Shown: positions 3,623 through 63,200 of the stretch, piece after piece
Position numbering within the stretch: position 1 is the stretch's first letter
Layout: every line of letters begins with the position of its first letter
DNA from: an uncultured Erysipelotrichaceae bacterium
GTDB taxonomy: Bacteria; Bacillota_I; Bacilli_A; RF39; UBA660
Reading direction: 5' to 3'
Assembly (NCBI GenBank): GCA_902795215.1
Contig: CADBKG010000005.1
Span: forward strand, 6,920-70,919
DNA length: 64,000 bases
Made by a program: the position numbers and the translations under genes
The notes under the pieces: model-generated
What the model saw: only the letters and a program-made list of their open reading frames with translations
Told to the model about the DNA's origin: nothing
Databases searched by the model: none

Positions 3623-3656
3623 ATGTTATACTATTAATATAGAAACGAAGGTAATT

Positions 3657-4517
3657 ATGAAAAAACTATTTGGAGAATTAAATTTAACTTGGAAAAAAAC
3701 AATTATATCAGCATTAGTTATAGGAATAGTTTTAGGATTAATAGCACAAATACCATTATTAAATGATACTTCTTTTACTAATTCGCTTGTAAGTTTTGAG
3801 TTATGGGTATTATTTGGCATTCTTATAATTATGAATAGCAAATCTTCAAAGGAATCAGCTTTAAAATGTTTTGTGTTTTTCTTAATAAGCCAGCCATTAA
3901 TATATTTAACACAAGATGTAATAGAGCATAGTAAGTTATTTTTAACATATTATAGATTTTGGATAGGATGGACTATTGCTTGCTTGCCAATGGGATTTGT
4001 TGGTTACTATATGAAAAAAGACAAATGGTGGGGATTATTAATTTTACTTCCTATACTTGTTTTACTAGGATTTGAATATTACAGATATTTATCTATGACC
4101 ATGTTTTCTTTTCCTAGACATGTTTTAACCGTTCTTTTTTGCATAGCTACATTAATTATTTATCCGCTATATATATTTAATAATAAAAAAATAAAAATTG
4201 CAGGAGTAATTATAAGTATGCTTATTATTCTATCGATGACGGGACTTAGCCTTGCTAAACCAGAAGTATACGCTACTGATATATTAATAAGTGGAGGAAA
4301 ATATAGATTTGATGATACATATAAAGCATATTTAGAAGACAATAAGTATGGTGATTTATCTTTACAATATGAAGATAATCTCGATACTTGGATAGTACAT
4401 GCAGAATTTAAAAAAGCAGGGAATACTAAAGTTATATTAGAATCACCAGATGGCAAGAAAACAAGGTTTAATATTTCTATAAAAAGAAATACATATGATA
4501 TAAAGGAGATAAAATAA
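3657..4517 (+). CDS. polytopic membrane protein with ~80-aa C-terminal soluble domain, unknown function
   Basis: RBS GAAGG upstream of ATG 3657; about 6 hydrophobic helices followed by a beta-rich tail. Confidence 0.55.
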   Translation: MKKLFGELNLTWKKTIISALVIGIVLGLIAQIPLLNDTSFTNSLVSFELWVLFGILIIMNSKSSKESALKCFVFFLISQPLIYLTQDVIEHSKLFLTYYRFWIGWTIACLPMGFVGYYMKKDKWWGLLILLPILVLLGFEYYRYLSMTMFSFPRHVLTVLFCIATLIIYPLYIFNNKKIKIAGVIISMLIILSMTGLSLAKPEVYATDILISGGKYRFDDTYKAYLEDNKYGDLSLQYEDNLDTWIVHAEFKKAGNTKVILESPDGKKTRFNISIKRNTYDIKEIK

Positions 4518-59600: not shown

Positions 59601-60282
59601 TGATGTAACTGCTAAAGAACACATTACAAGCTATGCTGCAAAACTAACTGTAGAAGTAGGGGATGAAGTAAATGCAGGTGATAAACTTACTGAAGGTGCT
59701 ATTAGTCCTAAAGAATTACTTGCTGTTACTGACCCACTAACTACTCAAAACTATATCTTAGATGAAGTACAAAAAGTATATAAATCTCAAGGTGTAGATG
59801 TTTCTGATAAACATATCGAAATAATTGCAAGTAGAATGATAAATAAGATGCGTGTAGTTGAATCTAATGATTCAGATATGGTCGCAGGACTTACAATTTC
59901 AATAAGAGAATTCGCTGAAAGAAATAAATCAGTACTTCTTAAGGGAGGCGTTCCTGCAACTGGTAGACCAGTACTTCTTGGTATTACTAAATCAAGTCTT
60001 GAAACTGATTCATTCTTATCTGCAGCATCATTCCAAGAAACAACAAGAGTTCTTACTGATGCATCATTAAAGGGTAAGACTGATTATCTAAAAGGTCTTA
60101 AAGAAAACGTTATCGTTGGTAAATTAATTCCAGCTGGTACAGGCGCAAAGGAATATTCAGATTTAGAAGTTACACTTGTTAATGAATCTTTAAAAGAAGA
60201 TCCAAGCGAAGTATTAGAAGAAAAATTTATGGATGATAGTGAAGATACTGCAATTACAAGCACTGCAGTTGAAGCAGAATAA
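56605..60282 (+). CDS. rpoC: DNA-directed RNA polymerase subunit beta'
   Basis: Zn finger [23 protein letters not shown], catalytic NADFDGDQM, trigger loop and bridge helix regions; start overlaps the rpoB stop (TAATG). Confidence 0.95.
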
Positions 60283-60310: not shown

Positions 60311-60352
60311 ATAAATATTTAGATTTCGCATATACTATTAATGATATACTAT

Positions 60353-60381
60353 TTGACATTTTCATAAAAAAGTAGTATATT
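60353..60381 (+). promoter_or_regulatory. consensus sigma-A promoter of the type III TA-like module
   Basis: TTGACA (60353-60358), 17 nt, TATATT (60376-60381). Confidence 0.6.
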
Positions 60382-60402
60382 TATATTGCCATTTACAATG
60401 GT

Positions 60403-60508
60403 GAAAATGTTTTCCGCTTCTGGATGGTGCGGATGATAAGTGATTCCAGGCGACAATGTTTTTCGCTTCCAGGTGGTGCGACTAATAAATGATCCTGGTT
60501 GAAAATGT
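60403..60508 (+). ncRNA. tandem 49-nt RNA repeats (2 complete + start of a third): candidate type III antitoxin RNA
   Basis: Units 60403-60451 and 60452-60500 (34/49 identical by hand alignment). Each starts GA(A/C)AATGT, which recurs at 60501. Hairpin CCGC/GCGG vs TCGC/GCGA. Loop pentamer CTGGA vs CCAGG pairs with downstream TCCAG vs CCTGG. Confidence 0.65.
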
Positions 60509-60512
60509 AAGA

Positions 60513-60541
60513 AACTTCATCACTTGATGGAGTTTTCTTTT
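60513..60541 (+). terminator. attenuator/terminator hairpin between the repeats and the toxin ORF
   Basis: AACTTCATC-actt-GATGGAGTT then TTCTTTT. Confidence 0.55.
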
Positions 60542-60575
60542 GATTTATGATATACTTTCTTGGGAGATGATATTC

Positions 60576-61043
60576 ATGAAAATTAAAACAGGCTATTTAT
60601 ATCACATAAAAGATGAATATTTTGATTTGGTAAACGATGAAAGCTTAATGCAAAATCACGAAAGGGGCAAGAAAAGGCCGACATATTTTACGATAAAAGA
60701 CAGGGATATATTATGGTTTATACCTATAAGTTCTAAAGTTGATAAATACCAAAAAATTATAGATAAAAAAATAGAAAAATATGGATTTTGTAATACTATA
60801 ATTATTAGGAGAATTGCTGATGAAGATGCAGCAATTCTATTACAAAACGCCTTTCCAACTTTGGAGAAATATATTGATCATGTACATACAATAGATGGTG
60901 TCCCATTTAAAGTTCCAACAGATTTACAGCATGAAATAAAAAGTATGTTTAAAAATATGATTGGTCTAAAGAAAAGAGGAACTAATTTGTTTTTTTCTGA
61001 TATAGATAATTTAAAAGTGAAAATGTTAGAAGAATTACAGTAA
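60576..61043 (+). CDS. ToxN/AbiQ-like type III toxin (endoribonuclease) candidate
   Basis: GGGAGA RBS then ATG 60576; 155 aa. YLYHIKDEYFDLVND, KKRPTYFTI, WFIPISSKVDKY and ILLQNAFPT follow the ToxN/AbiQ pattern (FYTISSKYIEYLKEFD, YLAPLTSPK, INLKFMIPI). Context of upstream RNA repeats. Confidence 0.6.
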   Translation: MKIKTGYLYHIKDEYFDLVNDESLMQNHERGKKRPTYFTIKDRDILWFIPISSKVDKYQKIIDKKIEKYGFCNTIIIRRIADEDAAILLQNAFPTLEKYIDHVHTIDGVPFKVPTDLQHEIKSMFKNMIGLKKRGTNLFFSDIDNLKVKMLEELQ

Positions 61044-61050
61044 TCATATA

Positions 61051-61085
61051 AAAAAACTTAAGTATCAAAGTGCTTAAGTTTTTTT
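61051..61085. terminator. bidirectional terminator
   Basis: AAAAAACTTAAG...CTTAAGTTTTTT between convergent genes. Confidence 0.7.
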
Positions 61086-61634
61086 CTATATAGCTCTATA
61101 ATGGTTAGCATCTTTATATGGATTCTTCTTATCAATTTTATCTACAAATAAGATGCCATTTAAGTGATCAATTTCATGTTGGAAAGCAATTGCTAAATCT
61201 TCTCTAACTCTGTAAGTAAATAGATTACCTTCTTCATCATAAGCTTCTATTTTCGCTCTAGCGTATCTTGGAACAATTCCTTCAACCTCACGGTTTACGG
61301 ATAAACATCCTTCGCCTTCTTCAACATAAATCATTTCTTCACTATGGGATATAATTTTTGGATTAATAATTACATAATTCTCAAATTTTCCTTTATCAAG
61401 TTCATTACATATAACAAATATTCTTTTAAGTTTACCAAGTTGAGGGAAAGCAAGTCCCATTCCAGGTCTAAGACCATATTTTTCAGAAACTTCTTCTATT
61501 TGACTTAGTTTTAAATACTCAAGAGCATCTTTAATAAGCTTTTTATCCTCTTCTGGAAGAGGAAATGTAACTTCTTTACTTACTTTATGTAATAATTTAT
61601 CTTTTTCATCTAAAATTTTAATATCAGGAATCAT
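61086..61634 (-). CDS. def: peptide deformylase
   Basis: GGGGTGAG RBS then ATG 61634; motifs GLAFPQLG, EGCLS and HEIDHLNG. Confidence 0.9.
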   Translation of the reverse strand: MIPDIKILDEKDKLLHKVSKEVTFPLPEEDKKLIKDALEYLKLSQIEEVSEKYGLRPGMGLAFPQLGKLKRIFVICNELDKGKFENYVIINPKIISHSEEMIYVEEGEGCLSVNREVEGIVPRYARAKIEAYDEEGNLFTYRVREDLAIAFQHEIDHLNGILFVDKIDKKNPYKDANHYRAI

Positions 61635-62726: not shown

Positions 62727-63200
62727 TTATTTTGTTTTTTCTTTTTCTTTTATTTTAATTTCATCACAAACATCAAGGTCTGAAAAAGAACCAAATATAT
62801 CTAAAAAATCATATAATTTAAAACTTGAATATCCGTTTTCATCAACTTTTACTTCAAATTCCTCAGAATTAACTAAATCATCAGATGGAATAGTGTCATG
62901 TGTGAAAACATAATCGTCATAATATTTAACTTTTACTATACTTTTACCTCGTTCATTTAATTTAACGATGATATCATCATTTTCTAATAAATCAAGATCG
63001 TTATTATATAATTTAGAAACTGTAACTAAATCAAGCTTTGAATATCCATTTTCATCTACCTTAACTTCAAATTCTTCTGAATCAACTTCTTCATTTGATG
63101 GGTACATTGAATTGTTGTTTTGGTAGTCTTTTTTGAATTTTTCTTTCAAATAATTTATTCCTTCTTCAGTTAATTTTACATTTAATTTTATATTTTCCAT
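62727..63200 (-). CDS. hypothetical acidic protein with internal duplication
   Basis: AGGAGGA RBS; two ~70-aa repeats (VDSEEFEVKVDENGYSKLDL / VNSEEFEVKVDENGYSSFKL). Confidence 0.5.
   Translation of the reverse strand: MENIKLNVKLTEEGINYLKEKFKKDYQNNNSMYPSNEEVDSEEFEVKVDENGYSKLDLVTVSKLYNNDLDLLENDDIIVKLNERGKSIVKVKYYDDYVFTHDTIPSDDLVNSEEFEVKVDENGYSSFKLYDFLDIFGSFSDLDVCDEIKIKEKEKTK

Follow-up and report, generated by a model that had tools for sequence, protein, structure and literature searches.

A type III toxin-antitoxin module of the CptIN family between rpoC and def in an uncultured Erysipelotrichaceae bacterium

In a 64,000-nt stretch of the genome of an uncultured Erysipelotrichaceae bacterium (contig CADBKG010000005.1, positions 6,920 to 70,919; hereafter the window), a first-pass annotation had pointed to a type III toxin-antitoxin (TA)-like module at 60353-61043, wedged between rpoC and def and consisting of a promoter, tandem repeats, a hairpin with a T-run and an open reading frame (ORF). 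All four elements lie where they had been placed. The type III TA system found there is genuine and complete, belongs to the known CptIN family and is not a new kind; we put the probability that the region is a functional CptIN operon at about 0.9. The assignment to the type III class is upheld by a hidden Markov model (HMM) of the family, a match to a solved structure, a match in fold, and covariation in the repeats; the proposed affiliation with ToxN/AbiQ and the suggestion of an undescribed subfamily had to be given up. With this locus, the type III TA family that has been studied least of the three gains a well-documented member. A large clade is exposed as well: at least 276 species-level genomes, mostly of uncultured gut Bacilli or 'Tenericutes', encode relatives of the toxin. 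How type III systems are understood to work is unchanged by the finding.

Identity of the toxin

The ORF at 60576-61043 (plus strand, ATG start, stop codon included) encodes 155 aa and is named here cptN, for a predicted endoribonuclease toxin of the CptN family. The HMM search that had been proposed for this ORF did return a type III toxin, the NCBIfam equivalog NF047359.1 ('type III toxin-antitoxin system CptIN family toxin'), which was matched at an E-value of 8.3e-47 and 158.8 bits (curated cut-off, 90 bits) over 149 of its 150 profile positions; ToxN_toxin was not matched in a search of Pfam-A at E<=1. The family is missing from the models of both Pfam-A and Rfam and present in NCBIfam. 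A sequence search of the Protein Data Bank (PDB) retrieved CptN of Eubacterium rectale, or CptN(Er) (4RMO_A, E 1.8e-19, residues 4-141). An AlphaFold2 model of the window CptN, built on 35 diverse homologues and reaching a predicted local distance difference test (pLDDT) score of 94.9, had the same chain as its best Foldseek match in the PDB (TM-score 0.83, ~32% identity), with AbiQ (4GLK; TM 0.75, 12% identity) as the runner-up and the MazF/Kid toxins next. Membership in the ToxN/AbiQ family is refuted by the Pfam, 4RMO and NCBIfam results, and, judged by its sequence, the ORF is a homologue of CptN, the toxin of the third type III family. The notion of an undescribed subfamily, which had been prompted by the length of the repeat unit, fares no better. 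The protein passes the CptIN equivalog cut-off, and a 49-nt unit in 2.2 copies adjoins what is published for cptIN loci, namely ~2.4 repeats (1.9-3.4) of ~45 nt (40-48), a terminator and a toxin of ~150 aa (Blower 2012, PMC3401426); the copy number is within that range and the length 1 nt above it.

When 35 family members (31-58% identity) were aligned, the window protein was seen to have the IPxSSKxxKY motif and the residues Y9, R34, P35, W47, P50, S52, K57, L88, Q90 and P94, which are invariant or nearly so in the family. Its S52-S53-K54 and K57 correspond to S51-S52-R53 and K56 of CptN(Er), the change of R53 to K being the family consensus, and D81 is retained. By this comparison, the conserved residues that surround the catalytic site of CptN(Er) can be shown to be present in the window protein. 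An exhaustive HMMER search with the toxin yielded 990 clusters, defined at 50% identity, at E<=1e-3, and 474 at E<=1e-10.

The antitoxin repeats and their pseudoknots

Tandem Repeats Finder (TRF) reported a period of 49 nt, 2.2 copies and 75% matches at 60400-60508, and the two full repeats with the beginning of a third that had been described there read exactly as claimed. On the plus strand, unit 1 occupies 60403-60451 in the genetic register (predicted processed RNA 60405-60453), unit 2 occupies 60452-60500 (predicted processed RNA 60454-60502), and the partial third repeat, GAAAATGT, comprises the first 8 nt of a unit at 60501-60508, its GAAAAT being invariant across 60 of 60 aligned loci. 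The known CptI of E. rectale, CptI(Er), is a 45-nt H-type pseudoknot with a one-base L1, a 9-nt A-rich L2 (AUAUAAAUG) and a kink U (Rao 2015, PMC4627078); a primer given there allowed us to recover its sequence, AAGUUUACCACUGACCGAUAUGUGGUAUAUAAAUGGUCGGGUUGA, which is cleaved at ..UUGA^AAGU... In the CptI(Er) register, the RNA of unit 1 is AAAUGUUUU-CCGC-UU-CUGGA-UGGU-GCGG-AUGAUAAGUGAU-UCCAG-GCGA and that of unit 2 is CAAUGUUUU-UCGC-UU-CCAGG-UGGU-GCGA-CUAAUAAAUGAU-CCUGG-UUGA. In unit 1, stem S1 would pair 60414-60417 with 60429-60432, plus 60413 with 60433, and S2, the pseudoknot stem, would pair 60420-60424 with 60445-60449, leaving 60434-60444 as the A-rich L2. The corresponding stems of unit 2 are 60463-60466 with 60478-60481 (S1) and 60469-60473 with 60494-60498 (S2). 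The L2 loop in the window is nUAAUAAAUGAU, in which AUAAAUG is common to CptI(Er).

Between the two units, 14 of 49 positions are different; four double substitutions account for 8 of the 14, and no pair is broken. Three of the four are in S2, as had been noticed on first inspection, and one more is in S1 (C-G to U-A). When 14 substitutions were placed at random 200,000 times, the frequency of placements with four or more compensated pairs was 4e-05, and all of these also had broken pairs. The repeat pattern is found in those two places only in the 64-kb window, where 0 are expected.

Homologous loci carry the same signal. The loci came from a scan of one genome per species for relatives of the toxin, and the best 80 (72-90% protein identity) were studied in detail; nearly all are from gut metagenome-assembled genomes labelled uncultured Bacilli, Tenericutes or Mycoplasma, with rabbit, Hadza, goat, mouse and others as the sample sources. 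The 75 loci with enough upstream sequence entered a comparison of layout. In 75/75, a promoter is followed by a short leader hairpin, two units and ~8 nt of a third, a terminator and a ribosome-binding site (RBS), which agrees with how type III loci are defined in the literature; the one exception in unit number is L052, with a single unit. These loci supplied 144 units of 49-52 nt, 50 of them distinct, which were aligned (alignment A1) for counting of the proposed pairs. Over the 50 distinct units, 96.6% of the cells hold standard pairs, a share that drops to 29-54% if the 3' partners are shifted by 1-3 columns. For S2 the paired share is 99.6%, and four of its five pairs are doubly substituted (CG/UA 25:24, GC/AU 37:13, 47:2, 26:24); the S1 pair 12-33 alternates between UA and CG (46:4), and double changes affect 6 of the 10 pairs overall. 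Rare S2 variants are compensated as well (CUGAA/UUCAG, CUAGA/UCUAG, CCGAG/CUCGG). The observed covariation score was reached by none of 500 shuffles. The unit-2 sequence of the window recurs in 46 loci. The loop-to-tail pseudoknot of the first-pass annotation is borne out by these counts, and repeats and compensatory pairing, the loss of which in homologous loci would have spoken against it, are retained across the 75 loci. Computation shows that S1 and S2 have been kept by compensatory change both within the locus and across the 75 loci, and the 49-nt units are predicted on this basis to fold as H-type pseudoknots.

The lengths of related repeats are 48, 49, 51 and 52 nt, those of 51-52 nt being in a sister clade. 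In a more distant locus at 42% protein identity (L170), the unit is 48 nt in 2.1 copies, with UCGC..GCGA, CCUAC/GUAGG, AUAAAUG and GGUGA^A; in another at 45% (L169), the two units are too diverged for TRF, and each can, by eye, form its own two helices. The GA^(A/C)AAU boundary 3' of both units is invariant in 60 loci, consistent with cleavage there, whereas the base before the boundary of leader and unit 1 varies (GA, GT, GG or GC among loci). An invariant 3' boundary and a variable leader boundary fit the structure of CptIN(Er), since it is the 3'-terminal A that sits in the active site there, and the partial third repeat is presumably always retained because unit 2 depends on it for its 3' cleavage site. 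In 2012, CptI sequences were not alignable (PMC3401426). The homologous loci now give comparative support for the CptI pseudoknot, and their alignment could seed a covariance model for CptI annotation. S2 is free to covary, while the AAU at the 5' end, the S1 core CGC/GCG, the junction UGG, the loop AAUAAAUGA and the boundary GA are frozen; from this division of covarying and frozen positions, protein-contact sites can therefore be predicted.

A fourth GAAAATGT, at 61019 within the cptN ORF, was considered as a self-cleavage site and rejected. It is kept in only 6 of 71 loci, and the plus strand of the window has 9 copies of the 8-mer, so its presence is put down to chance. Likewise, the promoter spacer (GACATTTTC) is complementary to the repeat boundary, and because the promoter is upstream of the inferred transcription start, no RNA pairing between the two is expected.

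Expression signals, conservation and genomic setting

The promoter that had been described as near-consensus and following rpoC matches 11 of 12 sigma-70 consensus positions. This promoter, P1, is on the plus strand with its -35 (TTGACA) at 60353-60358 and its -10 (TATATT) at 60376-60381, 17 nt apart. A conserved upstream box, ATATACTATT-AATG-ATATACTATT (60330-60352, plus strand), abuts the -35 with two copies of an (A/G)TATACTWTT motif; TATACTA is conserved at 90% or more in alignment A2, most loci carry GAATATACTATTAATGTATACTATT-TGACA, and homology to the other loci begins at ~60330, the left edge of the module. The transcription start is inferred at ~60388, and a leader hairpin, GCCATT-TAC-AATGGT (60388-60402, plus strand; -4.3 kcal/mol by RNAfold), lies directly 5' of unit 1. 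It has counterparts in nearly all loci with differing stems (CACTT/AAGTG, CTACTT/AGTAG, CACAG/TGTG, TCACT/AGTGA) and probably stabilises the RNA at its 5' end. Between the repeats and the ORF, the reported hairpin plus T-run proved to be a terminator-like site with a hairpin at 60511-60536 (11-bp stem, 4-nt loop; fold z-score -2.7) followed by TTTTCTTTTGATTT; the intrinsic terminator as a whole, with its U-rich tail (60511-60545, plus strand), forms the boundary between antitoxin and toxin. Changes in its stem are compensatory in other loci, e.g. CTCCAC/GTGGAG, CTTCGT/ACGAAG and CCCCAT/ATGGGG. The RBS, GGGAG (60562-60566, plus strand), is 9 nt before the ATG, and in A2 its GGAG reaches 90% conservation or more.

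In the interval between terminator and RBS there is also an extended -10-like element, TGATATACT (TGnTAnnnT; 60548-60556, plus strand), which is kept in 52 of 60 loci and whose variation is limited to the less critical positions. The 14-mer ATT(A/T)ATGATATACT occurs twice, once just upstream of the P1 -35 (60337-60350) and once in this interval, and the box at 60548-60556 could serve cptN as a weak second promoter or else be a repeated site for protein binding. A subgroup of loci has a spacer between terminator and toxin that is ~110 nt longer (L027, L040, L041, L043, L045, L048, L053, L057, L060 and L063, at ~3650-4000), and within it most of the subgroup carry a full second promoter-like site, TTGACG-18-TATATT; because of this site, transcription of the toxin in the subgroup may not depend on the antitoxin promoter. 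The leader hairpin, the TGnTAnnnT box and the distinct S2 helices of the two units all go beyond what the first-pass annotation had described and are offered as leads, not findings.

Compared with 67 loci, cptN has a median dN/dS of 0.04 with dS saturated, and at third codon positions the other loci agree with the window in only 60%. The mean identity is 98% for the 8-nt partial unit, 96% for unit 2, 90% for the -35 to -10 segment (over 59 other loci), 85% for unit 1 and 80% for the terminator. Since these values far exceed that of the third codon positions, the RNA and the promoter are under direct and strong constraint. Computation shows, then, that the conservation of promoter, leader hairpin, repeats, terminator and RBS is far stronger than neutral change would leave, and the module is an old one that has not spread recently.

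By homology to other loci, the conserved module extends over ~60330-61043, ~715 bp without a mobility gene. Upstream, rpoC ends at 60282 and is followed by its own hairpin and T-run; downstream, def lies on the minus strand (61086-61634), convergent to cptN. The position between these two genes, which had been called unusual, is real but particular to the lineage: rpoC and def are absent from the surroundings of all 80 related loci, and the rpoC-def placement is for this reason read as a lineage-specific relocation. In 32 of the 80, the gene directly upstream of the module is ppdK (pyruvate phosphate dikinase), identified from N-terminal sequence alone. At least seven loci (L018, L001, L010, L006, L074, L003 and L007) have a flanking stretch repeated on both sides of the module, which, where it was read (L018, L005, L006), is the 3' end of ppdK and in L018 includes its terminator. 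Such repeated flanks suggest either insertion with target duplication or duplication of a unit made up of the module plus the tail. An uninterrupted rpoC-def junction was found neither on contigs encoding an identical def protein, all of which have the module, nor among the def relatives on metagenome contigs, which are 62-74% identical and none of which is beside rpoC, cptN or the VanY gene; the boundaries of the insertion are consequently drawn from homology to other loci alone.

In several genomes, a second cptIN module, full or partial and ~74-85% identical, stands in tandem shortly downstream of the first (L003 4586-5307, L008 1092-1705, L018 2689-2920, L051 1022-1189, L079 5682-5883, L007 6801-6984). 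Among GenBank phages, zero CptN homologues were found, and a search of plasmids gave distant homologues only, at 30-42% identity on 8 plasmids and annotated as hypothetical (for example NZ_CP048628.1 of Megamonas funiformis and NZ_CP075965.1 of Clostridium perfringens). The 33 cptIN loci known in 2012 were all chromosomal, mostly from Firmicutes and Fusobacteria (PMC3401426), and given the 8 plasmid homologues, the statement of that year that cptIN is on chromosomes only may no longer hold. Three independent metagenome contigs with identical CptN (L082-L084) start 105-175 nt upstream of cptN, in or just upstream of the region of promoter, repeats and terminator. Such starts would follow if near-identical sequence, present in many species, broke the assembly graphs, and cptIN loci may therefore be under-assembled in metagenomes.

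Downstream of the toxin, a hairpin without strand preference, AAAAAAACTTAAG...CTTAAGTTTTTTT (61046-61089; 17-nt arms, 94% complementary), is common to the convergent cptN and def. With its A-run, 7-bp palindromic stem and T-run it resembles a bidirectional terminator, and it is host context outside the conserved module, since homology to other cptIN loci ends at 61043-61052. Further along the window, a 157-aa ORF on the minus strand (62727-63200) has no Pfam match and contains the segment NSEEFEVKVDENGYS twice, an internal duplication, and from ~63420 to the end of the window (plus strand) there is the start of a Flg_new-repeat protein, 2374 aa on the source scaffold and probably a surface protein.

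Mechanism, rival explanations and comparison with known systems

A working scheme can be put forth from what is known of the family (Blower 2012, PMC3401426; Rao 2015, PMC4627078). P1 would transcribe a precursor that mostly stops at the 60511-60545 terminator, so that antitoxin RNA is in excess, and the mRNA of cptN would come from read-through or possibly from a weak extended -10 promoter at 60548-60556. CptN would then cut the precursor after the A of GA^(A/C)AAU, between 60404 and 60405, 60453 and 60454, and 60502 and 60503, releasing two 49-nt RNAs with 2',3'-cyclic phosphate ends. CptN(Er) cuts CptI after A45, and CptI bridges two toxin monomers in a CptN2:CptI2 ring (PMC4627078); similarly, each RNA of the window may link a pair of CptN monomers, closing a CptN2:CptI2 ring in which the active site is occluded. 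Were transcription to stop or the locus to be lost, the labile RNA would decay, and free CptN could cleave cellular or phage RNAs and arrest growth. A more complex version could be envisioned, in which the gut-Bacilli clade departs from the model of one promoter and identical repeats by having non-equivalent units and a promoter of its own for the toxin; we regard it as an unlikely elaboration. In many species, the S2 helices of the two units stay unlike (CUGGA/UCCAG in one, CCAGG/CCUGG in the other), as do their first and last nucleotides; the helices are held distinct in the 49-nt clade and not in the 51-nt clade. As non-equivalent RNAs, the two units could form an asymmetric CptN2:CptI-a:CptI-b complex, or their difference could be a bar to mis-pairing between neighbours in the precursor. 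A toxin promoter downstream of the terminator, which would be the TGnTAnnnT box here or the full TTGACG-18-TATATT site in the sister subgroup, would, if true, mean that the ratio of toxin to antitoxin is not set by terminator read-through alone.

Several points weigh against a functional CptIN operon of this kind. A PADLOC search gave zero model matches for the module. Two of the residues by which CptN(Er) contacts the scissile adenine are altered in the window protein, Y104 to H and S85 to A, the former difference being tempered by H being the consensus of the 35 family members at that position. The junction between the 5' strand of S2 and the 3' strand of S1 is 4-6 nt in the window and ~2 nt in CptI(Er), so the exact tertiary fold may differ, and as the base before the cut at the leader is not always A, the 5' processing of unit 1 may not be universal among the loci. 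Phage protection has so far been demonstrated for no CptIN (PMC3401426, PMC4627078). Finally, transcription, processing, toxicity and antitoxicity at this locus are all predicted.

The operon architecture is identical to that of ToxIN and AbiQ, AbiQ gave the second-best structural match, and the 49-nt unit exceeds the 2012 cptIN range by 1 nt, all of which might be taken to indicate an abortive-infection system of the ToxIN/AbiQ type, or a subfamily of type III that is new, with phage defence as its primary role. This is very improbable in view of the missing ToxN_toxin and PADLOC matches, the CptIN equivalog cut-off that the protein passes, its similarity to CptN(Er) (E 1.8e-19, ~32% identity, versus 12% to AbiQ), the CptI-specific motifs in the RNA and the existence of related cptIN loci with 48-nt units of the same design. 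Nor has a phage-defence phenotype been seen for any CptIN: the cptIN loci of E. rectale and R. torques conferred no phage protection in E. coli (PMC3401426, PMC4627078), and CptIN(Er) aborted none of >200 coliphages while raising plasmid retention from ~50% to 100% (PMC4627078). With no phage aborted in E. coli by either of the two tested systems, the anti-phage label attached to the module at first is unproven.

The same plasmid and phage results favour a CptIN module that serves the selfish maintenance or stabilisation of a chromosomal region, i.e. addiction, rather than phage defence. The flanks here are rpoC and def, with neighbouring defence genes absent, the module is old and vertically persistent with dS saturated, and it is often beside core genes (ppdK in 32/80 loci, rpoC here). 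However, the phage tests were made in E. coli with coliphages only and have little bearing on gut Firmicutes, a caveat of the authors themselves (PMC3401426); other type III families do abort infection, and the dN/dS of 0.04 for the toxin fits a host-beneficial function at least equally. We consider addiction a substantial possibility, if short of an even chance, and the data decide neither for abortive infection nor for self-stabilisation as the biological role. There is hardly any prospect that the repeats are instead a cis-acting leader (attenuator- or riboswitch-like) controlling the ORF, or that the module is an inactive relic. The repeats do lie in the 5' untranslated leader ahead of a terminator, and the minimum free energy (MFE) folds of the single units are no better than those of shuffles (z -0.7 and +0.25), but these scores are uninformative, since folding restricted to nested pairs cannot represent a pseudoknot, and it is the pseudoknot that covariation supports. 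A search of the repeat region against Rfam matched zero families, and the ORF is homologous to a toxin that was crystallised with exactly such a repeat RNA. A relic is excluded by an intact ORF under purifying selection and an RNA more conserved than synonymous sites.

Among known systems, the MazF/Kid type II toxins have a beta-barrel-like endoribonuclease fold in common with the window toxin (TM ~0.5 normalised to the query), and CptN has been likened to Kid in the literature; they differ in having a protein antitoxin and no upstream RNA repeats, and in their size of ~110-120 aa and identity of 8-17%. ToxIN of Pectobacterium and Bacillus and AbiQ/antiQ of Lactococcus follow the same operon logic, with a self-processed pseudoknot RNA and a related toxin fold. 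The window toxin is unlike theirs in its lack of a Pfam ToxN match and its 12% identity to AbiQ. Moreover, ToxIN units are 35-36 nt long and form triplex pseudoknots in heterohexamers, whereas CptIN units are 45-49 nt, and those of CptIN(Er) are duplex-stem pseudoknots with an A-minor twist in heterotetramers; abortive-infection activity is demonstrated for ToxIN(Pa) and AbiQ and not for CptIN. Compared to CptI(Er) itself (45 nt), the window unit of 49 nt has a longer 5' tail, L2 and S2-5'/S1-3' junction, and, unlike in CptIN(Er), the two units differ at 14 positions with the helices compensated. Neither the conserved leader hairpin nor the extended -10-like box after the terminator is described for CptIN(Er) in the portion of its literature drawn on here. 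The likeness is otherwise close. Both systems are chromosomal in Firmicutes-like genomes and share a layout in which a promoter precedes ~2 full tandem repeats and a partial copy, with terminator and toxin after them; the toxins are of equal length (155 aa), with the agreement in sequence and fold given above. Their RNAs have the same order of elements, from the 5' tail through S1, a short L1, S2, S1', an A-rich L2 and S2' to the terminal ..GA, and they share the AUAAAUG core of L2 and the boundary GGUUGA^AA (in the window GGUUGA^AAAU).

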